A stretch of DNA of 64,000 bases, from positions 256,632 through 320,631 of the forward strand of contig JAUYAM010000002.1 of the NCBI GenBank assembly GCA_030693425.1, written 5' to 3'. Below the pieces are notes generated by a model. It did no database searches. It was not told where the DNA came from and worked only from the letters and a program-made list of their open reading frames with translations. Source of the DNA: a bacterium. GTDB lineage: Bacteria > Patescibacteriota > Minisyncoccia > Minisyncoccales > GWA2-46-15. The position numbers were made by a program, and so were the translations under genes. This document shows, piece by piece, positions 9,716-54,647 of this stretch; positions within the stretch are counted from its first letter, which is position 1; each line of letters opens with the position of its first letter.

Positions 9716-9845
9716 TAAAATCCAAATTTCAAAATCCAAATTACAAATAAATTCCAAATTCCAAAATTCTAAACCGTTTAAATATTTAAACTTTGGTCAT
9801 TGGATATTGTTTGGGATTTGATGCTTGGTGCTTGGAATTTAATAT
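9716..9845. repeat. long degenerate inverted repeat of A-tract/TCCAAA units around a perfect 16-bp palindrome
   Basis: GTTTAAATATTTAAAC at 9778-9793 is a perfect palindrome. The left arm carries AAATCCAAA/AAATTCCAAA units. The right arm carries TTTGGGATTT/TTGGAATTT units. Confidence 0.45.
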
Positions 9846-9848
9846 TTA

Positions 9849-9919
9849 CGGGCTGTAGTATAACAGTAGTATACCACTTTGGGGTAGTGGCGGTCCCGGC
9901 GCACCTCCGGGCAGCCCGA
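9849..9919 (+). ncRNA. tRNA-sized cloverleaf, possible atypical tRNA-Pro(GGG) or tRNA mimic
   Basis: 7-bp acceptor CGGGCTG/CAGCCCG plus A73. Anticodon stem with loop TTGGGGT (GGG, G37). 5-bp T stem CCCGG/CCGGG. However, the T loop is CGCACCT with no TTC, and the D loop has no GG. Confidence 0.3.
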
Positions 9920-9937
9920 CATCTAAACAAAAACCGT

Positions 9938-10810
9938 ATGAAACTTCTGCCGGTTAAATGTAATTTCTGTGGAAAAAAGTTTTATCGCTCGATTGGCAGA
10001 ATTAACGAATCTAAAAAATCTGGTTGGAAACAATTTTGCTCTCCACGGTGCCTATCTCGCCTTAGGACTACGAGACAATTTTTAACATGCGCCAATCCAA
10101 CTTGTGGGCAAAAATTCTATCGAGAGATTTCGCAAATAAAGATAGTTAAAAGATCTTTTTGTTCTTCATCCTGCACCGCCGTTTTTAACAACCGCGAACG
10201 CTATAAGAACCTGCCGCCAAATCTATGCGCTAACCCTTTATGCAGAAAACCGATACCGCGTGGAAGGAAATACTGCTCATCAGCTCACCGCATTAACCCA
10301 AAAAAGATACCGGAAGATTTACACAGAGAGCAGATTATTAATCGGATCAAAGATTTCTATCGAAAGCGGAAAAGAATACCGGTTAAGCGAGAGATGTACG
10401 GCATTTATAAAACAGCGAGATACTTATTCGGTAACTGGAATAATGCGGTAAAGGCGTCTGGCTTTAAACCGAATCCGGTGATGTTTTCGGAAAAACAGAT
10501 TGCCAACGATGGTCATATTTGCGATTCCGTCGCCGAAAAGATAATCGATAACTGGTTGTCTGCCAGAAAAATCATCCACCAAAGAAATGTCGCCTACCCC
10601 GAAAGTCCCTATACTGCTGATTTTGCCATCAATGGGAAATTGATAGAATTTTTTGGATTAGCTGGAGAAATGAAAAATTATGATAATATTATCTTAGAGA
10701 AAAGAAAGATATCTACAAAATCGAAAATCCCCCTTATAGAAATTTATCCCCGTGACCTGTTTCCTATTAAAAACCTCAATAGAGTTTTATCCAAACAATT
10801 ACTAGCTTAA
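9938..10810 (+). CDS. Zn-ribbon repeat / HEARO-like repeat / Vsr(DUF559)-like endonuclease-fold protein
   Basis: Start at MKLLPVKCNFCGKKF (ATG 9938). Three CxxCGK..F..FCSxxC modules. YLFGNWNNAVKASGF resembles the homing-endonuclease-associated repeat. The C-terminus YTADFAINGKLIEFFG is PD-(D/E)xK/Vsr-like. Confidence 0.6.
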   Translation: MKLLPVKCNFCGKKFYRSIGRINESKKSGWKQFCSPRCLSRLRTTRQFLTCANPTCGQKFYREISQIKIVKRSFCSSSCTAVFNNRERYKNLPPNLCANPLCRKPIPRGRKYCSSAHRINPKKIPEDLHREQIINRIKDFYRKRKRIPVKREMYGIYKTARYLFGNWNNAVKASGFKPNPVMFSEKQIANDGHICDSVAEKIIDNWLSARKIIHQRNVAYPESPYTADFAINGKLIEFFGLAGEMKNYDNIILEKRKISTKSKIPLIEIYPRDLFPIKNLNRVLSKQLLA

Positions 10811-10813
10811 AAT

Positions 10814-11378
10814 ATGACCAAATACATTCTCCACGGCGGCTATACCAAAGAAATAAATCGAGATAACGATTCATTCTTCACCGAAATCACTGCCGATGCT
10901 AAAAACGGGGCACAAATTTTGCTTTGTTATTTTGCCAGAAAAAGTGAAGAAACCCCCCGCGCTCTTTCGAAGAGACAAAAACAGAATAATTAAACACAGT
11001 AAAAATAAAAGATTAGAATTTGTTTTGGCTAGCGAAAATGATTTTGCTGAACAAGTAAGAAATGCTGACATAATTTTCCTTGCCGGCGGCAAGACGTTTC
11101 GGCTCGTCAAAAAACTTTCTAAATTTCCCGATCTCGAACGGTCCTTCAAAAATAAAATTGTCGTTGCCTCTTCGTCCGGTGTTTATGTTCTATCGAAATA
11201 TTTTTGCACGAATTTCCCGCCAAAACTCGGTAAGGGATTAGGAATTCTCAATATCAAAACCTTTTGCCATTATGACCAAAAAACATACGGCAAGTGGCTG
11301 AAAAAACTCATCGCCCATAAAAAGAGTTTGCCCATCCTCACTCTCCCCAATTACAAATGGGTAGTAATTTATAAATAA
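10814..11378 (+). pseudogene. peptidase S51 / class-I amidotransferase-like gene interrupted by a +1 frameshift in a C6 run
   Basis: ATG 10814 gives MTKYILHGGYTKE...LLCYFARKSEETP, then stops at 10991-10993. The 10896 frame continues ALFRRDKNRI...ADIIFLAGGKTFRL. The frames join at CCCCCC 10953-10958. Confidence 0.5.
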
Positions 11379-11412
11379 CTTCTCGTCTCAAAAAAGACCC
11401 TCGACCAAAAAA

Positions 11413-11434
11413 CGCCCCGCTAAAAGCGGGACGG
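11413..11434 (+). terminator. hairpin CCCGCT-AAA-AGCGGG after the S51-like gene
   Basis: Stem 11416-11421 pairs with 11425-11430, preceded by an A-run and followed by TCTTT. Member of the GTCCCGCT hairpin family. Confidence 0.45.
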
Positions 11435-11613
11435 TCTTTGATGGCCCAATTCCCTCCTAGTAGAATAATCCGGTGAAAATTCACTGGTGGGTGTCCGCTT
11501 CCGCCGCCCACGGGCGGCGGAAATAAAGACTCCCTAAAAAAATGTATTGCCGAATCTAACTAAGAAGGAACAGGACCGCTTATATTGTACCGCAAAGCAA
11601 AATCACTGGTCAA

Positions 11614-11648
11614 GCAAAAATCGGCTGGCAAAAAGCGCGCAGCCGATT
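11614..11648 (-). terminator. intrinsic terminator of the 119-aa gene
   Basis: On the reverse strand, AATCGGCTG - 12-nt loop - CAGCCGATT is followed by TTTTGC, 14 nt after the stop at 11662. Confidence 0.65.
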
Positions 11649-11661
11649 CTTTTAGAAACAA

Positions 11662-12021
11662 CTATTCGGTCTCTTTAATCTGCTCCTCTATATCCCATGT
11701 CTCGAATAAAGACCATCCGGCGTTGACAAATTCGAGAGAAATGAACTTTGTCTTGGGATAAAGAAAAACTCCCACTCCGCCCAGAATCTCGTTCTGGAAA
11801 CGACTCACTTCTTCTCGCTTCAGCACGTCGCCGGTTGAGCCATAGTGGATGGCCAGAATCCTGACATGTTCCTCAGGCTCAAACACCCGCGTTGAAGCCA
11901 AAACCTCGCAGGTATTGTTCCGGCCAAAACGATTGGCAGTTCCCAAAACAATATTTCTCAACTGCTCAGTACCAACCCCCGTCGCCAACATACTATCCAG
12001 AACCACAAAGATCTTGAACAT
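11662..12021 (-). CDS. hypothetical protein (G+C-rich island gene 2)
   Basis: 119-aa ORF with strong SD GAGGAGG 5 nt upstream of the ATG. No family recognised. Confidence 0.6.
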   Translation of the reverse strand: MFKIFVVLDSMLATGVGTEQLRNIVLGTANRFGRNNTCEVLASTRVFEPEEHVRILAIHYGSTGDVLKREEVSRFQNEILGGVGVFLYPKTKFISLEFVNAGWSLFETWDIEEQIKETE

Positions 12022-12162
12022 ATGATCCTCCTCACCAAAAAGATTGAAAGGACAAACAGTTTAATCTTTATTACCAAAATAAATTGTTTTTGTCAAAACA
12101 AAAGTGGCCACGATTGCTCGCCGCCACTATGTTTTTCCAATCAGTCCTTGAATGCCGACCGG

Positions 12163-13026
12163 CTAAGGCATAGCCGGCGGCGGGGTAAAGTCAAAGGGAT
12201 TTGGCATCTGTCCCTTTGGACAGGGCTTGAACGTCCAGTTATCGTACATATGGCTGAGGGGAGATTCCCGTAAACTGCTTAACAGCTTTCTGGGATAAAC
12301 CCCGCCCCAGTTGGACGCTACGCCGTTAGTGACGTAGGCCCAAAACAGGGTCCCGACCGTTTCAGCGACCGGAATCCACCACTGCCAGCGTTTGACCTTC
12401 CCATTAGCGTCTACCCAGGCGCCACAACGAGGCCCGCCATACCTGGTAGACGCTATGATTCCGGCGTAATTCGCCAGAAACCAGTTGAGCTCTACATTTG
12501 CCCAAGCCCCTGGCGTATACGGATCGTGCGCCGGATTTGAATGAACCGGCGCATACACGCCAGAGGCCATGTAATTTATCAACCATACAGACGCGGCAAT
12601 AACGATCAGCAACTTGACTTCGTTGCTGACCACGATCGCCGCCACCACCTCGTCCCCAAGAATAGGAGAAAGTGTGGTAATAGTAAGGGCAACCGCGCCG
12701 ATCGCGACACCTTCCAGAATGTCCTCTTGATTATAGTCGCCGCAGATGATCATTCTCTCATCTCCGGCGAGAGGAACGGTCTGATCTGATTCCTGGCATT
12801 CTTGCGGGAGCAGGCCAGTGGGGATGCCATGATCCTCAACCCAAAGATTGGCGTCAATGATGAAATCTTGTGGGGTGAGGACCGGCGGCTCAGGCGGAAG
12901 GGGCACGCCGGGGGCGTACTCATTTTCCGGCCAGATGGATTCAGATGGTTTGGGACCGCAGGCGCCCGCGATGAGCGCCACCAAAACCATAATAATAAGA
13001 ATCGCGATTGTCTTTGAGCTTTTCAT
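12163..13026 (-). CDS. hypothetical secreted protein, probable lipoprotein (G+C-rich island gene 1)
   Basis: 287-aa ORF. N-terminus MKSSKTIAILIIMVLVALIAGAC looks like a signal peptide with a lipobox-like Cys. SD AGGAGG 5 nt upstream. Visibly higher G+C than its neighbours. Confidence 0.65.
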   Translation of the reverse strand: MKSSKTIAILIIMVLVALIAGACGPKPSESIWPENEYAPGVPLPPEPPVLTPQDFIIDANLWVEDHGIPTGLLPQECQESDQTVPLAGDERMIICGDYNQEDILEGVAIGAVALTITTLSPILGDEVVAAIVVSNEVKLLIVIAASVWLINYMASGVYAPVHSNPAHDPYTPGAWANVELNWFLANYAGIIASTRYGGPRCGAWVDANGKVKRWQWWIPVAETVGTLFWAYVTNGVASNWGGVYPRKLLSSLRESPLSHMYDNWTFKPCPKGQMPNPFDFTPPPAMP

Positions 13027-13097
13027 TTTGCCCTCCTTTCAGGGCATAAAACTAATGGATTGGACTTGCGGACTGATTGGCAAAGAACTTAATCTAG

Positions 13098-17156: not shown

Positions 17157-17456
17157 TTAAACAAATTCTATTTTGAGATCGCGGTCAAAAACCAAAGCTA
17201 TTTTTTGGAGGGTTTCGGTAGTAAAATTCTGTTGACCCGTTTCTAGACGAGCCACATTGCTTTGTCTAGTGCCGATCCTTTTTGCCAATTCCGCTTGCGA
17301 CATTTTGTTTTGTTTACGCAATCTTAAAATCTGGTAAGCGATTTCTAGGCGCTTGCCATATTCGTCATAGTGTTCCTTCATCTCAGGGTTTTTCAATTGA
17401 TTTTTCAAGTATTCTTGGAAATCAACTGCTTTTTGCATTTTTTTTGTTCTATTCAT
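17157..17456 (-). CDS. XRE-family HTH antitoxin (HigA-like)
   Basis: 99-aa ORF. MSQAELAKRIGTRQSNVARLETG is a helix-turn-helix. Overlaps the upstream toxin gene by 8 nt. Confidence 0.85.
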   Translation of the reverse strand: MNRTKKMQKAVDFQEYLKNQLKNPEMKEHYDEYGKRLEIAYQILRLRKQNKMSQAELAKRIGTRQSNVARLETGQQNFTTETLQKIALVFDRDLKIEFV

Positions 17457-17826
17457 ATAATTTCGGGTTATTTATGACGTCGTAATAATTTTCTTCAGCT
17501 TTTTTGATTTCCTGAACTGGCGTTCTTTCGGTTTTCTTCAAGAACGCGTGAAGTAAAACTATTGTTTTCCTGATAAATATAAAGTAGAAAATTCTGAATC
17601 TATTTTTGCTAAAATTTACTCTTAATTCCCTGATTTTCCCTTTTATATGTTTTGAATACGGTTCGTCTAAATATCCTTTATGCCCTCTCAGGAATTCAAT
17701 GTATTTTAAGATTTTTGCTCTTTCTTTATAACCAAGATTTTCTATATACTCTAAAACAGGACTTTTGCTGGTTTGAGAATTCCTATAAAACTTTACTTTA
17801 TACTCTATATTATCAGGGTATATCAT
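17449..17826 (-). CDS. RelE/HigB-type toxin (phage Gp49-like)
   Basis: 125-aa ORF. SKHIKGKIRELRV....RIFYF....IVLLHAFLKKT pattern of Gp49/HigB-like toxins, followed by an HTH partner. Confidence 0.8.
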   Translation of the reverse strand: MIYPDNIEYKVKFYRNSQTSKSPVLEYIENLGYKERAKILKYIEFLRGHKGYLDEPYSKHIKGKIRELRVNFSKNRFRIFYFIFIRKTIVLLHAFLKKTERTPVQEIKKAEENYYDVINNPKLYE

Positions 17827-19937: not shown

Positions 19938-20207
19938 CTACTCTATATTCATCGCAACGTACAAGATTGGCGTTTGTCGAAGATTGGCCATGTAGGCTTT
20001 AAAGCTTTCTTCATCGCCTTCGCCAAACATTATGCCCTTTGCTGTCGCGCCGCATCTCGGACAGATAACGCCTCCTATTTGCCCCCATCCAGTTTTCGTA
20101 CGGTCTTCTGTCCAATAGTGGCGCTCTCCTCCCTCCTGTCCACTGCATATAAGGACTACTATTAGGGGCGACTCCCATACTCCGCCCACTCCGACTCCTC
20201 TAGGCAT
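19938..20207 (-). CDS. hypothetical small protein with Cys pairs (G+C-rich orphan)
   Basis: 89-aa ORF. SD AGGAGG 5 nt upstream of the ATG at 20205-20207. Contains ICSG...CPRCG. No family recognised. Confidence 0.5.
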   Translation of the reverse strand: MPRGVGVGGVWESPLIVVLICSGQEGGERHYWTEDRTKTGWGQIGGVICPRCGATAKGIMFGEGDEESFKAYMANLRQTPILYVAMNIE

Positions 20208-20333
20208 ATTAGCCTCCTCTCATCATCATCAAATCAGAAAAGTCTTTGTTTGTAAAGTCTTGCATGACCCAAAGACGCGGGTGTGATACAATATAAAAAG
20301 GTCATCATAATTAAAAAGTAAAATTATAATAAT

Positions 20334-31237: not shown

Positions 31238-31332
31238 CTCTTACTCTCTACGCCGCCGGGGCGCGTTGCCAAAAATACCTAGCTGTGATTTAATAAGGAT
31301 CGCATTAAAAATTCTGACGAGGAGAAGGAAAA

Positions 31333-31476
31333 ATGCCCACAGCTCATTGCAGTGATTGCGGTTGCGAGCTCTTTCCCGACGAAATCGAGCTCGCGGAAAT
31401 AAAAAGGGATGGGCTCTGCCCGACCTGCAGAGAAAAAAATAGGAAGGAGGAAGAAAAAAAGAAAGAAGAAAAATAA
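31333..31476 (+). CDS. small zinc-ribbon protein with Lys/Glu tail (G+C-rich orphan)
   Basis: 47-aa ORF below the track cutoff: MPTAHCSDCGCELFPDEIELAEIKRDGLCPTCREKNRKEEEKKKEEK. SD GGAG 8 nt upstream. A strong terminator follows 16 nt after the stop. Confidence 0.5.
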   Translation: MPTAHCSDCGCELFPDEIELAEIKRDGLCPTCREKNRKEEEKKKEEK

Positions 31477-34505: not shown

Positions 34506-34630
34506 AAACCGTCTTTATCCTATCAAAAAACCCCGTACAACAACAGAGTTGTATACGGAACAAGCCGCCTCTTTGGCGATAAAATCAGAAAACGTGGGAG
34601 GTCGGACCTCCTCTGTCCTTTGTTTTTAAC

Positions 34631-39650: not shown

Positions 39651-40724
39651 TTAAGCTCCGTGTTTGATTTCTATAACGTCGCCGTCTTGGACAACATAGT
39701 CCCTGCCCTCGGTGCGGATCAGGCCTTTTTCCCTGGCCAGAGCAAAACTGCCTATAGCAACCAAATCCTTATAATTAATAACTTCGGCCTTAATAAAATG
39801 AGTTTCAAAATCAGTGTGAATCGTGCCGGCTGCCCGCGCCAATTTAGTCCCGGTTTTGATCTGCCAGGCCTGGACCTGTTGGGAAACCGTAGTAAAAAAG
39901 GTGATCAAATTCAATAAAGAATATGCTTGTTTGATTAAAAGATCCAGGCCTGAGTCTGCAGGCAATCCCAAAGACTGCCTCTCTTCTTTGGTGAAACCGG
40001 CTGCCCCCAGTTCTTCCAAAACGTCAACAATCAGAAACGGCCAATTGTTTTTCCGGAAAACCTCTTTTGCTTCCTGCTCTGATTCTTCTTCTTTGGCATT
40101 CAAAAAACAGAGCCTGGGTTTGAGAGAAAGCAATTGGTAGTTTTTAAGAATCTGGTTTTCCTCCTCGCTAAAGTCTTTTTCTGCCAAAATCTCCCCCTTT
40201 TCCAAAACAGCTTTGATTTTTAACAGCAGTTCCGCTTCTTTCTGGGCCTCTTTTTTCCCGGACCTGGCCTCGCCGCCAACGCTCTCAATTCTTTTTCTGA
40301 CGGTTTCCATATCCTTTAAAACCAGCTCGGTGTCCAAGATTTCTTTTTCGCCAACCGGATCAACAACGTTTCTGGTGTTGATAATATCGCTGTTTTTAAA
40401 AGCGCGCAGGACATAAATAATCGCCACTGTTTCTCTGATGTGCGATAAAAATTGGTTTCCCAAACCCTCGCCCTGGTGGGCGCCCTTAACCAAACCGGCA
40501 ATATCAACAAACTCCACTGTCTCATAGATTTTCCTTGCCGAGCCGGTCAGCTGAGCCAGAACGTCAACCCTCGGGTCAGGAACTTCAACCACCCCGACAT
40601 TGGGATTAATGGTGGTAAAAGGATAGTTCGAGCAGTCAACCTGCTTTTTGGTCAGGGCTTGAAATAAGGTGGACTTTCCCACATTAGGCAAGCCAACAAT
40701 TCCGATGGATAAATGAGAAGCCAT
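39651..40724 (-). CDS. ychF: redox-regulated ATPase YchF
   Basis: 357-aa ORF. GIVGLPNVGKSTLFQALT, DIAGLVKGA, and a TGS-like C-terminus (GRDYVVQDGDVIEIKH). Confidence 0.93.
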   Translation of the reverse strand: MASHLSIGIVGLPNVGKSTLFQALTKKQVDCSNYPFTTINPNVGVVEVPDPRVDVLAQLTGSARKIYETVEFVDIAGLVKGAHQGEGLGNQFLSHIRETVAIIYVLRAFKNSDIINTRNVVDPVGEKEILDTELVLKDMETVRKRIESVGGEARSGKKEAQKEAELLLKIKAVLEKGEILAEKDFSEEENQILKNYQLLSLKPRLCFLNAKEEESEQEAKEVFRKNNWPFLIVDVLEELGAAGFTKEERQSLGLPADSGLDLLIKQAYSLLNLITFFTTVSQQVQAWQIKTGTKLARAAGTIHTDFETHFIKAEVINYKDLVAIGSFALAREKGLIRTEGRDYVVQDGDVIEIKHGA

Positions 40725-40964
40725 TACTCCAGTCTAAAGCAAAACAAAGGATTTGACAAAAAGCTGGACAAAAATAAAGGCTAGTTATTTAACCTGGTTA
40801 AGCAACTATTAAACTGCTTCTGTTTAAATTTCTTTCGACGTAACGTTATTTGAGTATGCCTACCGAGAGTTTTTATTTGCTTAATTCGATTTGACAAAAA
40901 TCTAAAGTTGCCGCAGCATAAAAGAGCTTTACCCATCCGCTCGTTCATAGAAAAGGAGTACATT

Positions 40965-41189
40965 ATGCAAACAGTTATCACCATCACCGAGAAAGACTCG
41001 TTCAAAAGGGCTGATATCGCGAGACGCATCCGGCACGCCGCGGAGAGATTGTCCGAACGGCTCGAGGACGGGCCTAACGGGACATTCCGCTTCACCGACC
41101 ACGGGCGGGCGGGAGATGGTAACCGACCGGTGACGGTTAGCCACTCCCACTTTCAGAAAATTCCCGGCATCAAGATCGAGGACGTCTAA
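40965..41189 (+). CDS. hypothetical small protein (G+C-rich orphan)
   Basis: 74 aa from the ATG at 40965, with SD AGGAG 6 nt upstream. GAGAGC-ATT-GCTCTC hairpin after the stop. Opposite strand to both neighbours. Confidence 0.5.
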   Translation: MQTVITITEKDSFKRADIARRIRHAAERLSERLEDGPNGTFRFTDHGRAGDGNRPVTVSHSHFQKIPGIKIEDV

Positions 41190-41217
41190 GAGAGCATTGC
41201 TCTCAGGACCGGTTCTA

Positions 41218-44055
41218 TCAAGGAGCCGGCCCTTTATTTGCATACTCGCAAATCCCTTTAAAATCGCACCACTGGCACTGCCAGCCCGGAGTCGGTTTAA
41301 AATCGCTTTTCTGGATTTCTTTAATCTCTTTGACAATCTTTTCTTTTTCTTTTTTGATATCTTCTTTGCCGCCCAAAAAAGAAACGCTTTTACCCTCGTC
41401 TAAATAATAATAAGTCAGTTTTTTTGGCTTTAACCCTAAAACCTCTTCAGCCGCCATCTGATAAATCAAAAGCTGTTTTTTGTCTTCGGGCCGCAATTTT
41501 TCCTTGGCAGATCCTGTTTTGTAATCAATGATTTCCACTCCTCCGTCCAAATCGTCAATCCTATCTATCTTGCCAATGAGAGTATGGCTGCCGATTTTTA
41601 AATTAAAATCCTGCTCCAAAGCCGGCTTACCTGAAACCAGCAATATTTTCGGCTTTGTTTCCATAAGCTCTTCGTAGAAACTTTTAAGCGTTTTTTTTCC
41701 CGACTCAAAATAGTCTTTTTTCTGTTCCGGGCTTTCATACCATTCGTCCAGCCACTCTTTCTCGTAAATCGCCAGCAGCTCCTTAAAACCGGGCTTATTT
41801 CCCGAGGCAAAAGCCAAAGCAAAACTATGCAAGGTATTGTGCATTGTCTTGCCAAAAGAAAACATGGCTTTGCCCCTGACAGGAATCTTTAAAATATGGG
41901 CAAACTTGTACTGTAAAGGGCACTTGTCAAAGGCGATCAGCTGGGTGAAAGAAAACCTTTTAGGCAACTCCAGTTTTGCCGGTTTCGCTTTTCTTTCAAC
42001 TTTAAGAGAAATTTCCTTGGTTGAAATAATCTTGCCGTCGTATCCCAGCTCCGGCAAAAACCGAGACAGCCTTTTTGCCTGAACGCCCCCGTAACTTTCA
42101 GCCGAAGTCAAAAACAAAGCGTTTCTGGCGCGGGTCAGCCCCACGTAAAAAAGCCTTCTTTCTTCCTGGAGATGAAAATCCCCTTTGGGAAGGATATCCT
42201 TAATCAAGGGTTTTGGAATTTCAATCGGATCCGGCCTTTCAATGCTCGGGAATCTTTTGTCAACAAGATTGATCAGAAAAACATACTTAAACTCCAAACC
42301 CTTGGCCGAATGGACGGTCATGATTTTAACCGCTTCCGGCCCCTGCTCAATATCAAAACTAAGTCTTCCCTCTTCCCCGGACTCCAGCTCCATATCCAGC
42401 TCCTCCATAAAGCTCTTCAACCTTGCGTCCAGATGAGATTCTTCAAAGGCTTTTATCCGGCTATGGAATTGGAAAATGAGGTCAAGATCCTCTTTTCTTT
42501 CTTTCCTGACTAAATATTCAAGAAAGCCCGAATCCTCAAGAAAAGCCAAGAGGATTTCGGAAACGTTTTTTTCCAAAGCCATCCGGGTATGCTTTTCCAC
42601 CAGGACCAAGATTCTAATAACGGTTTTTTGAGTCTTGCCGGAGACGCCGCCAATCAGGGGCAGTTCCTGAAGAGCTTCATAAATCGATTTTGACCGGCGA
42701 CGGCTGTACTGGTTGATTCTGGCAATGTCTTGGGGGCTAATTCCCAAAAAGGGAAGGCTGAGAATCCGAAAAGAGGCCGAACTCTCATGATAATTGTCCA
42801 GAAACTTAAAATAGGAAATGATGTCTAAAATCACCGGCTTTGAATATAATCCCTTGAGAGCTAAAAACTGGTAGGGAACGCCCGATCTTTCAAAGGATCG
42901 GGCAAAAGGCATCGCCTGATTGTTAGCCCTGACCAAAATGGCAAAATCGTTGAAACAGGCTTTCTTGTCTGTTTTCAAGAGCCGGCCAATCCTGGCGACA
43001 ACGCCGGCAATCTCCTGCTCGGCGGTTTTAAAATGAAGGTGGGCAATTTCAGCTTTGCCCGCCCTCGCCGCTTTCAGTTTTTTGCTGATTCTATTCAGCC
43101 AGTCGGGCCTCAATGAGTCATCGAGCCGGATAAATTTATGGGCCAGGTCGAGAATATTCTGGAAAGAGCGGTAATTTTCCGCCAAGGCAATTTCTTTTGC
43201 CCGAGGAAAATCCTTTTTGAACTGGATGAGATTGCCCCAAGAAGCGCCCCGCCAGCGGTAGATCGCCTGAAAATCGTCGCCGCAAACAGTCAGGTTGTTC
43301 TCTGGCGCCGCCAAAAGCCTAACCAGCTCGTACTGAGCAAAATTTGTATCTTGGAACTCATCAACTAAAATATACTTGAATTGCCGGCGGTATTTTTCTA
43401 GAATCTTTGGCCGTTTCTGGAAAAGCTTCAAGCAGTAATTTATCAAATCGCCGAAATCCAAAACCCCTGACTTTAAAAGCAACTCCTGGTAAGTTTGAAA
43501 AGCCCGGGCCACTTCCAAAAGCCGGCCCCGGTCATCGCCCTTGGCTTTGCGGGCGTATTTTAAATAGTCCTCTGGCAAAATCTGCTGGTCTTTACAACGA
43601 TTAAAATGCTCGATTAAAGCATGGACAAATTTTGTCGGCTGGCCCAAAGGCCGGTAATAATCAAGCTTGAACCTCTCTAGGTTCTGCCTAATCAAAAGCC
43701 AGGCGCTGGTCTGGTCAACTAATTTGAAATCAGTAGATAATCCAATATCTAAACCGTGTTCTCTCAAGACCCGGTCGCAAAAAGAATGGAAAGTGGAAAT
43801 CCAAAGATCGCTGTAGCCGCAGGACAAAAGCCGATCTACTCTTTCAACCATTTCCTGAGCTGCTTTGTCCGTAAAGGTAAGCCCAAGAATCTCCTTAGGT
43901 CTAACCTTTTTCTTTTCGATCAGGTAGGCAATCCTATTGGTAATGACCGTAGTTTTGCCGGTGCCGGCCCCCGCCACGATCAAAAGCGGGCCTCGGCCAA
44001 AGGTGACAGCCTGTTTTTGCTTTGAGTTGAGTTTGGATAAAGAAGAGGCAAACAT
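41218..44055 (-). CDS. UvrD/PcrA-type helicase fused to a Cas4/AddB-type PD-(D/E)xK nuclease
   Basis: Start at MFASSLSKLNSKQ (ATG 44053-44055). AGAGTGKT Walker A, DEFQDT. C-terminus has CPLQYKF...IDRID...EIIDYKTG...LLIYQ...CQWCDFKGIC. Confidence 0.88.
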   Translation of the reverse strand: MFASSLSKLNSKQKQAVTFGRGPLLIVAGAGTGKTTVITNRIAYLIEKKKVRPKEILGLTFTDKAAQEMVERVDRLLSCGYSDLWISTFHSFCDRVLREHGLDIGLSTDFKLVDQTSAWLLIRQNLERFKLDYYRPLGQPTKFVHALIEHFNRCKDQQILPEDYLKYARKAKGDDRGRLLEVARAFQTYQELLLKSGVLDFGDLINYCLKLFQKRPKILEKYRRQFKYILVDEFQDTNFAQYELVRLLAAPENNLTVCGDDFQAIYRWRGASWGNLIQFKKDFPRAKEIALAENYRSFQNILDLAHKFIRLDDSLRPDWLNRISKKLKAARAGKAEIAHLHFKTAEQEIAGVVARIGRLLKTDKKACFNDFAILVRANNQAMPFARSFERSGVPYQFLALKGLYSKPVILDIISYFKFLDNYHESSASFRILSLPFLGISPQDIARINQYSRRRSKSIYEALQELPLIGGVSGKTQKTVIRILVLVEKHTRMALEKNVSEILLAFLEDSGFLEYLVRKERKEDLDLIFQFHSRIKAFEESHLDARLKSFMEELDMELESGEEGRLSFDIEQGPEAVKIMTVHSAKGLEFKYVFLINLVDKRFPSIERPDPIEIPKPLIKDILPKGDFHLQEERRLFYVGLTRARNALFLTSAESYGGVQAKRLSRFLPELGYDGKIISTKEISLKVERKAKPAKLELPKRFSFTQLIAFDKCPLQYKFAHILKIPVRGKAMFSFGKTMHNTLHSFALAFASGNKPGFKELLAIYEKEWLDEWYESPEQKKDYFESGKKTLKSFYEELMETKPKILLVSGKPALEQDFNLKIGSHTLIGKIDRIDDLDGGVEIIDYKTGSAKEKLRPEDKKQLLIYQMAAEEVLGLKPKKLTYYYLDEGKSVSFLGGKEDIKKEKEKIVKEIKEIQKSDFKPTPGWQCQWCDFKGICEYANKGPAP

Positions 44056-44243
44056 TTGATTATCATAACACGCCTCCAGCCTTCGCCCCAAAACCGTTCT
44101 CAACTACGCCGCCGGGTCGCGTAGTCCGCATGAAACACAAAGTATATCCATGCGTCATGGGCCAGTACAAGTTATTGACAAAATGATTCTATTTTAGTTA
44201 GATAACCTTACTATCCATCCAGTTCATTCAAGGAGGTTAAATA

Positions 44244-44483
44244 ATGGCCGTAAAAATCATCCTCAACGTTGATCCTAACGACTTTATCGCGTTCTCAAGG
44301 ATTTGCGCCAAGGTTCAGCACCTCATCAACATCGCGCCCGGAGGTAATTTTTCCCTTCAATCGGTCCCCGGCAGTAAAACAGAATACTTGTTAGTGGACC
44401 GCAGAGCCAGGGAACCGACTTCTCTCTCAGAATGGCTAAAAGAACATTTTGAAGAAATAGATGTCACCGTCACGGAATCGTGA
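44244..44483 (+). CDS. hypothetical small protein (G+C-rich orphan)
   Basis: 79-aa ORF. SD AGGAGG 7 nt upstream. TTGACA at 44175-44180. Opposite strand to both neighbours. Confidence 0.5.
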   Translation: MAVKIILNVDPNDFIAFSRICAKVQHLINIAPGGNFSLQSVPGSKTEYLLVDRRAREPTSLSEWLKEHFEEIDVTVTES

Positions 44484-44539: not shown

Positions 44540-44902
44540 TCAGCAGGTTGTATGGATCAAGGCGTTGATTTTCTGCCCCAACCCAGCTTTCTCATTATAA
44601 AACTTGATGGCTTCTGGCGTCAGCAAGGCAATAACGATTATCCCCTTTTCCCTGGCCAGGCCAACGAAATCTTCTCCGACCTCCAGAGCCCCCTGCCAGC
44701 CGGTTCCAATAACAATGATTTCGGGATTTTCTTCAAACAGCTTTTCTGCCTCCCAATCGCCTATCTTATGAGAAGTGCCAAACAGCTCTTCAAGCCTCTT
44801 ATAGTCTCTTTCTAAAACTTCAGAGCCCACAATTAAAACCTGATGGTATTTCTTGCCATCAATGACAATTGAACCAAAATCAACTGAATCAATTTTTGGC
44901 AT
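44540..44902 (-). CDS. Mth938-like (DUF498) domain protein
   Basis: 120-aa ORF. IVIDGKKY..VLIV......W........PEIIVIGTG....EV......LAREKGI.V....T.EA...YN pattern recalled for Mth938-like domains. Confidence 0.6.
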   Translation of the reverse strand: MPKIDSVDFGSIVIDGKKYHQVLIVGSEVLERDYKRLEELFGTSHKIGDWEAEKLFEENPEIIVIGTGWQGALEVGEDFVGLAREKGIIVIALLTPEAIKFYNEKAGLGQKINALIHTTC

Positions 44903-45052
44903 CCCCGTAGGAAATTAAATATCTTCCGTGGTTAAAACGTTTAAGCTTTCATATATCATAAGACATTGTTTGAAAATAGTTAGAGGGGTTTTAGAATGAA
45001 GATATTTCGCTTCCTGAAAATTCCACGAAAACCCCTGCGTTTTTCTACGGGG
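44903..45052. mobile_element. MITE-like element copy E3 (150 bp), exactly filling an intergenic gap
   Basis: CCCCGTAGGAAATTA at 44903-44917 and the inverse TTTTTCTACGGGG at 45040-45052. Flanked by CAT at 44900-44902 and 45053-45055. About 29-nt imperfect TIRs, each ending in TTCCGTGG or its complement CCACG(G)AA. Confidence 0.65.
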
Positions 45053-45362
45053 CATTCTTGCCGGGAAAGATAAAAGTTTTTTTGAAAATAATCTTGTACA
45101 GATTTTCGAGAAAGTCGCCTCCGGCATAGCCGACAATCAGGGCCAGGGGTGGGGTTAAAGTGTCCAGGCCAGAAATGATGACGCCCGACTGCTTGATCGC
45201 CGCTGCGGTCAGCAAGCCCACCACTCCGGACAAAAAAGAAGTCGCAAAAAAGTAGAGGGGATTAAAAGGAGTGTTTTTATAAGAGTAATAGTATTTTAGA
45301 AAACCGACCAGTCCCCTGATTAGGCCGCCTCCAAACCCGGCAACTAGGATAGAAAAGTACAT
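45045..45362 (-). CDS. small Gly-rich membrane protein
   Basis: 105-aa ORF with three hydrophobic segments. The last codons GCC CCG TAG come from the element E3 terminus. Confidence 0.55.
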   Translation of the reverse strand: MYFSILVAGFGGGLIRGLVGFLKYYYSYKNTPFNPLYFFATSFLSGVVGLLTAAAIKQSGVIISGLDTLTPPLALIVGYAGGDFLENLYKIIFKKTFIFPGKNAP

Positions 45363-46244: not shown

Positions 46245-46294
46245 TTTCTTGCGCGCTTTATCCGCGCACCAGTCCCGCTTTTAGCAGGACGGTG

Positions 46295-46365
46295 CGGGAT
46301 TCCGCTCCACGCGTAAGCGTGGGAGGAATCCCGTAGCGGAGAAGATACCACGCGCTTGCGCGTGG
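46295..46365. repeat. G+C-rich double-hairpin intergenic element, locus 2
   Basis: CGGGATTCC..TCCACGC-GTAA-GCGTGGGA..GGAATCCCG (46295-46333) and CCACGCGC-TT-GCGCGTGG (46348-46365). The reverse complement matches the 19789 hairpin with a compensatory pair change. Confidence 0.55.
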
Positions 46366-46372
46366 AGCTTCA

Positions 46373-48820
46373 TTAAAACAACTTCTTTTTGGATTGGTTC
46401 ACCGCTTTTGCCAATTCGATAATTATAATGATTATGGCCGCCGCCGCCAGAAGCAGGCCCCAGTCAACCAAGTTCAAGGGAACGATGTTCAAAAGCCTTT
46501 GGGTCAAAGGAAGGTAGGTAATGGAAATCTGCAGGCCCAAGCTGGCAAAGACGGCCGCAAAAAGCCATTTATTGGACCAAAAGTTCTCATATTTCCAGAA
46601 AGGCTTCCTGAAAGTCCGGCAGGAAAAGATGTAAAGAACCGATTCAAAAGAAATTGCCATAAAAGCCATCGTCCGGCCAAGCTCTATCATCCCCAGATGA
46701 AGGCCGAAATACCAAAACAGTCCCAGGCTAAAAAGACCCGATAAAAAGGAAACCAGGAAAATCAGGAAAACGCTGAATCTGTTGAGAATGGGTTCTGCAA
46801 TTGCCTTTGGCCCCTCAGCCATCACCTCTTTTTCCTTTGGCTCAAATCCGAGAACAACGTCTTCCGGTCCGTCGCACAGCAAATGAAGCCAGAGAATCTG
46901 GACAATAGTCAAGGGCAAAGGCCAACCCAAGAAAATCGACCCCAGAATCAAAACGATCTCGGCAAAGGAATTTGAAAGCATAAAAAAGATAACTTTTCTA
47001 AGATTTTCGAAAACCACCCTTCCTTCTTCAATGGCAGAAATAATAGTCTTAAAATTGCTGTCCAAAAGAATCATGTCCGCCGTTTCCTTGGCCACTTCCG
47101 AAGCCTCGGCCATCACAATGCCGATGTTTGATTTTTTAAGGGCGGGGGCGTCGTTGACGCCGTCTCCGGTCATCGCCACTATTTCCCCGAGCTCCTGAAG
47201 AGCCTTTACTATTCTCAACTTCTGGTTGGGCGTCACCCGGGAAAACAAGAGAATGCCGGGCACCCTGGCGCGCAAATCTTCGTCGCTGAGTTTTCTCATC
47301 TCGTGCCCTTCCAAAACCTCATCCGGTTCAACTTTCATGCCTAAAAACTCCATAATCTTTTCTGACGTCCGGCGATAGTCTCCGGTAACCACTTTTATCT
47401 TAATGCCGGCTTTTTTGGCGATTAAAATGGTTTCTTTGGCTTCTTTACGGGGCGGGTCCCAAAGGCCGATCATGCCGCCCCATTGGAGAGAGGGCATGTT
47501 TCCTAAGCTAATTTCTTTTGCCTCGGCAGAGGAAACTTTTTGAAAAGCCAGGCCGATAACTTTCAAGCCCTTGCCTGCCAATTCGTCCATTTTGGCCAAA
47601 ACCTGCAGCCGGCTGCCTTCGGCTAAACTCGTCATCGCCAAAACTATTTCTGGAGCCCCTTTGACGAATAAAAAGGTCCCCTCTTCCGGCGAAGAGTTAA
47701 CAGTGGCCATAAACTTATGCTCGCTGCTGAAAAGAATCTCAGAAATCCTTTGGTATTTATCCGAAACGTTTTCAGGAGAAAAACCTTTCTGGCTCCTCAG
47801 GTAGTCCCAGATAGCGATTTCTTCCGGACTGGAAATGTCATTGCAAAGGGACATTGTCAGGAGGCTGCTTTCTCGGTCTTTAAAATCTGCCTCGCTGACT
47901 TTCATTTCCCCTTCTGTCAGGGTCCCGGTTTTATCGATACAAATAGTCGTCACCGACCCAAGAGTCTCAACCGCCAAAAGCTTCCTGATCAAGGCTTTTC
48001 TCTTCAAGATCTTCTGCGTGGCAATGACCAAAATCAAGGTAACAACTATGAGCAGGGCTTCGGGAATAATGGCTACCAGAATCACAGAAGCTGTCTGAAC
48101 CATCTGCCAAAAGTCTCTGCCGGCCAGAAATCCGGAGACGAGTACCAAGAACGAAAGGAAAACCGAAAAATAGACTATGGATCTCGTAAATCTCTTCAAT
48201 CTTAGCTGGAGAGTCGTCAAGGGCTGAGACGTTTGTTCGAGGGCCGAGGCAATTTCCCCCATCTCGGTGGTCAGGCCGATTTTTGTCACCCTGATGACAG
48301 CCCGACCGCCGGCAATAATTGTTCCCATATAGGCTTCGTCCCCGGGATTTTTTTCCACTGGCTCGCTTTCGCCAGTCAGAATCGCCTCGTTGGCAAAGAG
48401 GGAAACTGCTTCCAAAACTTTTGCGTCTGCCGGGACCTTGTCGCCGACGGCAAGAAAAACAATGTCCCCGGGAACAAGATCTGAAACCTCAATCTCCTGC
48501 CTCTGGCCGTCCCTAATAACCCTGGCCAGCGGCCTGATCAGCTTCTTCAAGGCTGCCATGGTCCTTTGGGCTTTGTATTCCTGAAAAAAGCCAAAGGCAG
48601 AGTTTAAAAGCACCACCAAGAATATAAAAGCGATCTCAAGATATTCCTTGGAAAGAAGGGAGATGACTCCGGCAAACAAAAGCAGAAAAATCAGGGGGTT
48701 GGCAAACTGGGACAAAAAGATCCTGATCGGAGAAACCTCTTTGCCTTCCGGCAAAACATTGGCCCCGTATTTAGCCTTAAGCTCTTTGACTCTTGCTGAA
48801 GAAAGACCGATGTGTTTCAT
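46373..48820 (-). CDS. P-type cation-transporting ATPase (type II, Ca2+/Mg2+-like)
   Basis: 815-aa ORF. TGES, ICIDKTGTLT, KGAPE, TGDGVNDAPALKKSNIG, and ten TM segments. Confidence 0.93.
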   Translation of the reverse strand: MKHIGLSSARVKELKAKYGANVLPEGKEVSPIRIFLSQFANPLIFLLLFAGVISLLSKEYLEIAFIFLVVLLNSAFGFFQEYKAQRTMAALKKLIRPLARVIRDGQRQEIEVSDLVPGDIVFLAVGDKVPADAKVLEAVSLFANEAILTGESEPVEKNPGDEAYMGTIIAGGRAVIRVTKIGLTTEMGEIASALEQTSQPLTTLQLRLKRFTRSIVYFSVFLSFLVLVSGFLAGRDFWQMVQTASVILVAIIPEALLIVVTLILVIATQKILKRKALIRKLLAVETLGSVTTICIDKTGTLTEGEMKVSEADFKDRESSLLTMSLCNDISSPEEIAIWDYLRSQKGFSPENVSDKYQRISEILFSSEHKFMATVNSSPEEGTFLFVKGAPEIVLAMTSLAEGSRLQVLAKMDELAGKGLKVIGLAFQKVSSAEAKEISLGNMPSLQWGGMIGLWDPPRKEAKETILIAKKAGIKIKVVTGDYRRTSEKIMEFLGMKVEPDEVLEGHEMRKLSDEDLRARVPGILLFSRVTPNQKLRIVKALQELGEIVAMTGDGVNDAPALKKSNIGIVMAEASEVAKETADMILLDSNFKTIISAIEEGRVVFENLRKVIFFMLSNSFAEIVLILGSIFLGWPLPLTIVQILWLHLLCDGPEDVVLGFEPKEKEVMAEGPKAIAEPILNRFSVFLIFLVSFLSGLFSLGLFWYFGLHLGMIELGRTMAFMAISFESVLYIFSCRTFRKPFWKYENFWSNKWLFAAVFASLGLQISITYLPLTQRLLNIVPLNLVDWGLLLAAAAIIIIIIELAKAVNQSKKKLF

Positions 48821-51378: not shown

Positions 51379-51624
51379 TCATCTGATTTCGACAATTTTT
51401 GACGGCAACCACCCCGTCTTTTTACGGCAGACGACCTCGGCCATAATCTTTATCCGCTCGCCAACCTTGGCCGATTTCAGTTTTTCGTAACCCTTGACTT
51501 GGTCATCAACCTCAAGCAGGGCCGTCTGAAAGTCGTAGTATGCATAGATACTAACGACTGAAGAGCCGGGAACAGCAAGCTGGTAAACTATCCCGGTCGT
51601 TGCAACCGTGGAAGTTTTCTTCAT
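51379..51624 (-). CDS. hypothetical small protein (orphan with strong SD)
   Basis: 81-aa ORF. AAGGAGG 4 nt upstream of the ATG at 51622-51624. No family recognised. Confidence 0.5.
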   Translation of the reverse strand: MKKTSTVATTGIVYQLAVPGSSVVSIYAYYDFQTALLEVDDQVKGYEKLKSAKVGERIKIMAEVVCRKKTGWLPSKIVEIR

Positions 51625-51684
51625 TGTTCCTCCTTATGAGAAATTGGTTTGCTAGTAAGAGCTTAGCAAAAATAGTTCCTTTTT

Positions 51685-54386: not shown

Positions 54387-54422
54387 GTAAACGGTTGTAA
54401 ATCCCTTTTGGAGGAGGATCCT

Positions 54423-54647
54423 ATGGACAACAAGTTCGCTGGATTTGCCGCCCTCGTTAACGCTCTGTCTCCTCAGACAATGCCTGATGGAGACGCTCAA
54501 GATATCGCTAACGGAGCGGCTTATATCCCGGGAGAGGTGACGGACTTACGCCGTGCGGGCCAAACCGTCAGTTTTGCGAAAACGGATGGTCCCAGAACCG
54601 AATGGTATTGGACAATGCCAGGCGGTACCACAATCAAACACGGCTAA
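54423..54647 (+). CDS. hypothetical small protein (G+C-rich orphan)
   Basis: 74 aa from the ATG at 54423. SD GAGGAGG 5 nt upstream. Own promoter and a strong terminator. Confidence 0.5.
   Translation: MDNKFAGFAALVNALSPQTMPDGDAQDIANGAAYIPGEVTDLRRAGQTVSFAKTDGPRTEWYWTMPGGTTIKHG

Follow-up and report, generated by a model that had tools for sequence, protein, structure and literature searches.

Canonical Shine-Dalgarno-led orphan genes form a persisting minority in a Parcubacteria-type genome with a mutated anti-Shine-Dalgarno sequence

Bacteria whose 16S rRNA lacks the CCUCC anti-Shine-Dalgarno (anti-SD) sequence are held not to use Shine-Dalgarno (SD) sites, according to the available parts of two papers (Amin et al. 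2018, PMC6107228; Tsurumaki et al. 2022, RNA 28:1041, PMC9297842). Amin et al., citing Lim et al. 2012, note that an SD is generally absent upstream of the open reading frames (ORFs) of organisms that lack CCUCCU. Tsurumaki et al. report the anti-SD motif in only 48% of Parcubacteria, with the lineages lacking it overlapping the uL1-less group, and suppose that SD helices do not form in the anti-SD-less lineages. Here we describe a minority of genes with perfect SD motifs in such a genome of the candidate phyla radiation (CPR), designated G000. The starting point was a window of 64,000 nt (the whole stretch analyzed; positions 256632-320631 of contig C3, JAUYAM010000002.1), in which an earlier note had singled out eight ORFs with a common architecture, among them ORPH1 (40965-41189, forward strand) and ORPH2 (44244-44483, forward strand).

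As far as the available text of the papers concerned describes them, the closest known systems resemble G000 only in part. The anti-SD-less Parcubacteria of Tsurumaki et al. share with it a 16S tail without CCUCCU, the failure to find uL1, a small genome, a 16S insertion and a loss extending through the order, but no minority of canonical-SD genes is described in the part of that paper available. The rule of Amin et al. holds for most G000 genes, which have neither an SD nor a motif complementary to the variant tail, but about 4% of the genes carry a perfect AGGAGG at SD spacing, a subset so small that a whole-genome motif search would average its signal away. In the SD-blind translation of Bacteroidia, the anti-SD of Flavobacterium johnsoniae is sequestered by bS21, bS18 and bS6, and rpsU has a strong SD. 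The SD-poor proteome, the A-rich starts and the few special strong-SD genes are alike in the two systems, whereas in G000 the anti-SD is mutated rather than hidden, rpsU has no SD, and the SD-led set consists of accessory orphans instead of an autoregulated ribosomal gene. The leaderless-plus-ribosome-binding-site genomes of GeneMarkS-2 (Lomsadze et al. 2018, PMC6028130) likewise have a -10 box at a fixed short distance before the first genes of operons, but the canonical SD of the leadered minority in G000 matches the genome's own tail only via G·U pairs. Phage morons, finally, are small self-contained units, complete with promoter and terminator and of deviant composition, as the G000 orphans are, but the latter lie outside prophages, between housekeeping flanks, and have no viral relatives that we could find. 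The SD-less majority therefore fits what is already known, since anti-SD loss in a Parcubacteria subgroup together with leaderless starts explains it, and what is apparently new is the persisting SD-led orphan class; our literature search found no paper on a minority of stand-alone orphans with canonical SDs in anti-SD-less genomes.

Genes of G000 (848,783 bp in five contigs, 44% G+C, completeness rating 100%) were called with our own greedy dicodon-based caller and not a published tool, using a dicodon model trained on 325 ORFs of at least 300 aa; this gave 827 genes, many of them with uncertain start codons. The chance rate of SD motifs was taken from 6,156 internal start-like codons. When the AGGAGG class is defined by a motif 4-10 nt from a start that lies within 30 codons of the longest start, it comprises 36 genes against 4.6 expected, an 8-fold excess over chance. 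SD cores of at least 5 nt precede 65 genes against 25.3 expected, which means that about 25 of the weaker 5-mers are due to chance, and 4-mer SDs at the longest start are depleted (33/827, or 4%, against 9% at internal start-like codons). Spacings of 5-6 nt are the commonest, and the motif has the consensus AAGGAGG(U), extending to AAGGAGGU. By its numbers and tight spacing the AGGAGG class is real, and the proposal of the earlier note that two populations of initiation signals coexist is borne out genome-wide, with an AGGAGG-led minority beside an SD-less majority.

The same note had suggested comparing SD presence with gene length and with G+C at the third codon position (GC3) across the genome. 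SD-led genes are shorter than SD-less ones (median 145 vs 240 aa), and GC3 is alike in the two groups (0.535 vs 0.516, p = 0.11). Their overall G+C is higher (0.507 vs 0.446, p = 2.5e-17) and their dicodon score lower (0.249 vs 0.352). The G+C excess resides at codon positions 1 and 2 (GC1 0.585 vs 0.489, p = 6e-19; GC2 0.39 vs 0.35) because the encoded proteins contain fewer K, N, F and I and more W, C, H, R, V and P. AGGAGG genes also differ from SD-less genes in their surroundings, with a longer median upstream gap (142 vs 52 nt), more frequent exact TTGACA motifs 56-103 nt upstream (12/36 vs 34/758), more frequent terminator-like sites 3' of the stop (15/36 vs 72/761) and a lower median minimum free energy of the region from -20 to +40 (-11.95 vs -5.70 kcal/mol, p = 3e-13). 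Pfam families are absent from 28 of the 36; the other eight are TK, dNK, a tmk-like kinase, AAA_18, NUDIX, a Csx3 fusion, a radical SAM enzyme and a weak zinc ribbon. Some 30-40 genes thus form a separate class of stand-alone units with a strong -35 element, a leader of 25-70 nt, AAGGAGG(U) 5-6 nt before the ATG and a terminator of their own, whose products are small, family-less, lysine-poor and lineage-specific. They are dispersed singly or in islets of unshared genes, and large islands or prophages were ruled out as their carriers, as the islets hold only one to six genes.

Two sets of leaders within the class resemble each other. The TK and dNK genes (C1:25431-26940), both AGGAGG-led, share about 60 nt of leader (ctcttttttNNtttgcttgtttaagNatagat...aaatccaa), which from its sequence may be a shared regulatory leader. 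At C3:137340-137890, two adjoining orphans of 115 and 68 aa with dissimilar proteins are preceded by modules of promoter, leader and SD that are nearly duplicates of each other (TTGACAaaat...ggtatgacc...gcacacaaaAGGAGGtgc).

About 95% of the genes start without an SD, operon-leading genes being predicted to be leaderless and the others having A/U-rich unstructured starts. At positions -15 to -5 before SD-less starts, G makes up only 13-18%. TANNNT peaks exactly 6 nt before these starts (81 occurrences vs about 25 at neighboring distances), a position where TATAAT itself is found 15 times, and the maximum for TTGAC lies 30 nt upstream; the congener G001 shows the same TANNNT peak. A -10 box 6 nt before the start is the signature of leaderless mRNAs. 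The ychF gene of the window, on the reverse strand, is an example of this layout, as the promoter scan places TTGTCA-N17-TAGACT (40731-40759) 6 nt from its ATG at 40724; a GGAG 2 nt before this ATG lies inside the spacing between -10 box and start. The same layout precedes ychF in the metagenome contig L108 and in the congener G004, whose gaps between ychF and the neighboring helicase gene are occupied. That core genes lack SD motifs, as had been claimed, was borne out, as neither GGAG nor GAGG occurs at SD distance within the 30 nt upstream of rplC, rpsJ, tuf, fusA, rpsG, the sigma factor, the helicase, the two HPS paralogues or any of nine others.

The state of the 16S rRNA accounts for this majority. 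A check of the 3' tail, which had been suggested at the outset, found the anti-SD core mutated from CCUCC to CUUCU, and the SD-less majority can be attributed to this mutation. The single 16S gene, on the contig of the window, ends in GGAUCACUUCUUUUU and not in CCUCC; after an intact helix 45 the tail reads GGATCACTTCTTTTT / GGATCACTTCTTT, with the anti-SD segment CACUUCUUU. CCTCC is found in none of the 23 relatives in the order with a readable tail. Within the genus the tail varies, being CACUUCU in G000, CACCUCA in G001 and G007, CAUAUCA in G002 and CAUUACU in G004; CAUUAAAUU serves as an example of a non-pairing tail. uL1 (PF00687) was not found in G000 by a search whose control was positive in 14/14 genomes, and bS1 is present. 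G000 is thus a uL1-less Parcubacteria-type CPR genome and fits the anti-SD-less subgroup of Tsurumaki et al. 2022. CsrA was not found in G000 and was therefore dropped as a candidate reader of GGA-containing leaders. Within the 16S gene, an insertion of about 465 nt (C3:72495-72945, reverse strand) lies between CACCGCC (E. coli position ~1400) and the CGTCACGTCAAGC that follows. No SD lies upstream of rpsU (bS21), where the preceding 60 nt (C1:33795-33860) consist of repeated taatttct/taattact units, unlike rpsU of Flavobacteriales.

Within the window, the architecture described for the eight ORFs stands in its main points. Each of them has AGGAGG or AGGAG 4-8 nt ahead of the ATG and a G+C-rich hairpin followed by a T-run 3' of the stop. 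Their dicodon scores are 0.20-0.41 per codon, compared with averages of about 0.33 for called genes and about -0.1 for rejected ORFs. No Pfam family reaches its cut-off in any of the eight; among the 63 SD-less genes called in the window, 54 match a family at E <= 0.001. The proteins are dissimilar to one another, as had been noted: among 66 SD-led proteins BLASTP pairs no orphans, and only the radical SAM and the thymidylate-kinase-like paralogues are paired. Other features are less general. G+C (0.458-0.573, contig 0.443) is clearly raised in six of the eight but only marginally in the 31333 and 44244 ORFs. An exact TTGACA lies 65-100 nt ahead of the ATG in five, but a canonical -10 box follows at 16-19 nt in only two of these. 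Three of the four forward-strand ORFs lie between reverse-strand genes, and the one at 54423 does not; an antisense position relative to both neighbors is no property of the class, being found in 4/36 AGGAGG genes and 49/751 SD-less genes (p = 0.30).

ORPH1 encodes 74 aa of no known family. Its AAGGAG (40953-40958) lies 6 nt from the ATG, and its upstream region (40892-40964, forward strand) contains an exact TTGACA (40892-40897), from which the promoter scan found no canonical -10 box at 16-18 nt, and the leader block ATCCGCTC. According to the terminator scan, a terminator-like hairpin with T-run (41209-41229, forward strand) overlaps the stop region of the helicase gene. ORPH2 (feature 44231-44483, forward strand; 79 aa) has AGGAGG at 44231-44236, 7 nt from the ATG, TTGACA 69 nt upstream and a terminator hairpin. 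The third forward-strand orphan, of 74 aa (ORF 54423-54647, feature 54410-54647), is preceded by GGAGGAGG 5 nt before the ATG, with the SD at 54412-54417 and TTGACA 65 nt upstream, and the fourth (ORF 31333-31476; 47 aa, zinc-ribbon-like with CxxC...CxxC) by AGGAG at 31320-31324, 8 nt before the ATG; both have terminators. The reverse-strand orphans are the ORFs 19938-20207 (89 aa; AGGAGG 20213-20218, 5 nt before the ATG) and 51379-51624 (81 aa; AGGAGG 51629-51634, 4 nt before the ATG), each again with a terminator. The two remaining reverse-strand ORFs belong to a small island and also end in terminators. One (11662-12021, 119 aa) has AGGAGG at 12027-12032, 5 nt before the ATG, and TTGACA 75 nt upstream; the other (12163-13026, 287 aa, with a lipoprotein-like signal peptide) has AGGAGG at 13032-13037 and a TTGACA-N17-TATAAT promoter.

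The history of the class was followed in the congener G001, which was fetched whole (636,697 bp), processed in the same way and has core genes with about 66-71% DNA identity to those of G000. AGGAGG genes of G000 seldom have a G001 match (8/36 vs 513/761 SD-less genes, p = 8e-8), and the same holds in the opposite direction (2/18 AGGAGG genes of G001 vs 446/598 SD-less genes). SD-led genes make up only 51 of the 299 unshared G000 genes, and the remaining 248 are A+T-rich (G+C 0.423). ORPH1 and ORPH2 are both missing at the syntenic sites of G002, G003, G004 and G007; for ORPH2 absence was seen at the site in G004, G002, G007 and L108. In these respects the earlier suggestion that the orphans are acquisitions is supported in part, but its specific form, moron-like genes from phage or host, is not supported. 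The genes flanking the window's orphans are of housekeeping type, among them ychF, a UvrD-type helicase and glycosyltransferases, and neither integrases nor a phage context were found around SD-led genes. Scans of viral contigs gave no real relative for any of the five orphans searched: none for ORPH1, which also had no relatives in genome contigs, none for the 44244 and 54423 ORFs, only a 13-residue match for the 51379 ORF, and for the 12163 ORF two matches that were set aside as the window's own or a very near genome. No donor emerged either; for an SD-led M32 peptidase the best matches, at 35-47% identity, are spread over Anaerolineales, Nitrospira, Caldisericota and CPR, and a close donor was not found. 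With their native-like GC3 and with ORPH1 kept together with its SD elsewhere, the SD-led orphans are not plainly recent imports.

The gap between ychF and the helicase gene illustrates how such genes may be held. It measures 493 nt in G000, is empty at 44-77 nt in G007, G002 and G003, and reaches 720 nt in G004, where (contig C14, L112 4479-5004) two antisense SD-led ORFs unrelated to ORPH1 occupy it, one of 86 aa with AAGGAG and a Cys-rich one of 34 aa with AGGAGG. L108, a metagenome contig carrying the locus, has in this gap an intact 77-aa orthologue of ORPH1 in the same orientation, with 58% amino acid identity and AAGGAG; the leader blocks GACAAAAATCT and ATCCGCTC and AAGGAGT are kept between the two. 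The dN/dS of this pair is 0.41 (pS 0.456, near saturation). Taken together, the occupied and empty gaps and the L108 orthologue point to a variable slot for small gene cassettes of which ORPH1 is an older resident under purifying selection. ORPH1 has a dicodon score of 0.21 per codon and a family of five members at E <= 0.001 among 1.84 billion representatives; protein searches gave it 2-4 homologues, and its homologues are 50-69% identical. ORPH2, in a word-indexed and length-limited search of 5.8 billion proteins, matched only itself, and the 54423 orphan has one homologue at 43% identity. AlphaFold2 predicts for ORPH1 a small beta-alpha-beta-beta-beta (alpha/beta) domain (pLDDT 89.7); Foldseek found no match in the PDB at E <= 0.001, only weak resemblance to ferredoxin-like folds (HMA, CheA P2) with TM 0.45-0.6.

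Where an SD-led gene does have a G001 homologue, the SD is usually kept. G000_0748 and G001_0579 are syntenic and 71% identical, with AGGAGG in both; G000_0284 and G001_0335 are syntenic at 30% identity, with AGGAGG and AGGAG, respectively; G000_0557 and G001_0365 have AGGAGG in both at 33% identity; and there is one further pair at 30%. In the Csx3 fusion pair (87% identity) the SD is GGAGGTGG in G000 and AGAGGTGG in G001, the latter fitting the CACCUC tail of G001. HisRS, SHMT, FtsX, UPF0182, tmk and S17, by contrast, have a 5-mer SD in G000 and none in their G001 orthologues, which marks the 5-mer SDs of core genes as chance.

Pairing to the tail, structured leadered starts and SD retention together suggest that the leadered accessory genes are translated via G·U-tolerant pairing with the mutated tail and form a fast-evolving accessory pool rather than fresh phage morons, an explanation that we favor tentatively and rate at a little less than an even chance. 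The leadered mRNAs would fold strongly around the start, closing the leaderless or unstructured route and making them dependent on an SD. As both changes in the tail are C to U, GGAGG could pair with it, though only via two G·U pairs and not by full Watson-Crick complementarity, in a weakened but real SD:anti-SD helix, and the genes would constitute a pool that is expressed in a format of its own and resides in variable intergenic slots, the one between ychF and the helicase among them. The mean duplex energy of the 36 AGGAGG leaders is -9.0 kcal/mol with their own tail and -13.3 kcal/mol with the canonical tail, against -2.5 kcal/mol for SD-less leaders and -7.5 kcal/mol at the 5th percentile of internal controls. 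Strong translation of the orphans with a CUUCU tail, as the earlier note had envisaged for a class of highly translated effectors, seems doubtful.

Several observations weigh against this explanation. Congeners with non-pairing tails keep the SD class. AGGAGG-N4-8-ATG exceeds its backwards control not only in G000 (tail CACUUCU, 58 vs 13) and G001 (CACCUCA, 36 vs 5) but in most relatives whatever their tail, including G002 (CAUAUCA, 25 vs 8), G004 (CAUUACU, 29 vs 5), G016 (CAUUAAA, 46 vs 10) and G020 (ACAAUUA, 33 vs 7); few genomes lack the excess (G023, 17 vs 24; G030, 36 vs 40; G017, 15 vs 15). Since the tails of G002 and G004 yield duplexes of only -2.9 and -4.5 kcal/mol, respectively, and the excess persists in such relatives, tail pairing cannot explain the class everywhere, which implies that SD-led genes keep arriving from unsampled sources or that the motif is read by something else. 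SD variants adapted to the tail of G000 (AGAAG, GAAGT) are not enriched before starts. The deepest SD conservation tested spans only close lineages, and a search through 200 further genomes of the order did not recover G000_0748. GC1, GC2 and GC3 values of 0.585, 0.39 and 0.535 also resemble those of an ordinary genome of about 50% G+C, and compositional equilibrium is unproven.

Continued arrival would be the whole explanation if the SDs were relics, nearly or entirely useless, of orphans imported with promoter, SD and terminator from SD-using donors (anti-SD-keeping CPR, hosts or mobile elements) and turned over before the motif decays. We consider this unlikely, but it accommodates much of the distribution: 28/36 AGGAGG genes lack a G001 match and 16/18 of those in G001 lack one in G000, genes are missing at syntenic sites in four congeners, the slot beside ychF in G004 holds unrelated SD-led ORFs, the amino acid and GC1/GC2 composition is unlike that of native genes, relatives show the SD excess whatever their tail, and the SD extension GGAGGU(G) fits the canonical CACCUCC tail. 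It accounts less well for the native-like GC3, for SD retention in five homologous pairs, two of which are syntenic and the least similar of which share 30% identity, for the dN/dS of 0.41 of ORPH1 at a shared site, for the lack of any donor or viral relative of the five orphans searched, and for dispersal as singletons and islets of up to six genes without integrase or phage context.

A different reader of the motif could be a small RNA (sRNA). About 135 nt at C1:36960-37094 (reverse strand), after pth, are predicted to form a structured RNA with a perfect TTGACA-N17-TATAAT promoter and a loop, AUCCCUCCUUAAU, in which the canonical sequence of the 16S tail is embedded; a small ORF led by AGGAGG (MKKADVQRDQTVCCPHCGNK...) comes directly after this RNA. 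AGGAGG would then mainly be the handle of a trans-acting regulator, a conserved sRNA that displays the canonical tail CCUCCUUA in its loop and thereby masks or gates SDs throughout one post-transcriptional regulon, which strikes us as quite improbable. Besides the promoter and the position after pth, the candidate shows compensatory changes in 9/40 predicted pairs among six genus sequences, keeps CCCUCCUU or CCUCCUU in the loop of distant matches and is found in 13/41 genomes by a weak covariance model (effective sequence number 1.25). Its mean duplex with AGGAGG leaders, at -12.1 kcal/mol, is tighter than that of the 16S tail (-9.0 kcal/mol), and is so in 33/36 cases, and CsrA as another regulator was not found. 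Across the 41 genomes, however, its presence under this weak model does not track the AGGAGG-ATG excess, as G017 (15 vs 15) and G023 (17 vs 24) have the sRNA and G009, G016 and G020 have the excess without a detected one. The base after GGAGG is G in only 5/65 SDs, though the loop would prefer G, and since an SD-led small ORF directly follows the sRNA in most genomes, it may act only in cis on that ORF. Slightly less probable still is the far-reaching version, in which the canonical anti-SD has moved from the 16S tail to an sRNA loop near pth, so that the sRNA and not the ribosome reads the AGGAGG leaders, gating or delivering about 36 accessory mRNAs beside a leaderless or unstructured core proteome.

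That the mini-ORFs are not genes at all, their SD-like motifs being chance or part of non-coding RNAs, is very improbable: they are small and family-less, and about 25 of the 65 motifs of at least 5 nt are expected by chance, but AGGAGG stands 8-fold over chance at tight spacing, dicodon scores are positive, and ORPH1 has an intact syntenic orthologue (77 aa), four database relatives, a dN/dS of 0.41 to L108 and a confident fold. A coding signature and conservation, whose absence would have spoken against the orphans as the earlier note conceived them, are thus present in the positive dicodon scores and the dN/dS of ORPH1.

In G000 and most of the sampled relatives a few genes keep perfect SDs though their rRNA partner has decayed, in some beyond any pairing. 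Either the motif is read in another way, or weak G·U pairing is enough, or there is a steady inflow of SD-led genes from unsampled sources, and whichever holds has consequences for our view of translation initiation across much of bacterial diversity. For gene finding in CPR genomes, separate models are needed for small SD-led genes and for leaderless starts, and the format of TTGACA, leader, AAGGAGG and terminator can serve as a practical marker of genuine small orphan genes there.

The window also contains other accessory and repeated sequences. The two SD-led genes at 11662-13026 are part of a small island (9800-13037) beside tRNA-Pro (9849-9920) that also encodes an HNH-repeat protein and a peptidase S51-like protein, and G+C rises to 0.53 at 12-13 kb. 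A pair of HTH_3 (Xre-type) and Gp49/HigB-like genes, of the kind typical of toxin-antitoxin modules, lies at 17157-17826 (reverse strand) in an A+T-rich accessory stretch (G+C 0.29-0.37) that is free of SDs. A short dispersed repeat of about 160 nt (44893-45055) occurs again at C3:228975, at C3:120170 and in other places, as well as in G001. Two further repeats were seen, one at 46257-46374 that is 99% identical to C3:115243-115360 and one at 34527-34616 that recurs at C3:361636 and C3:350293.

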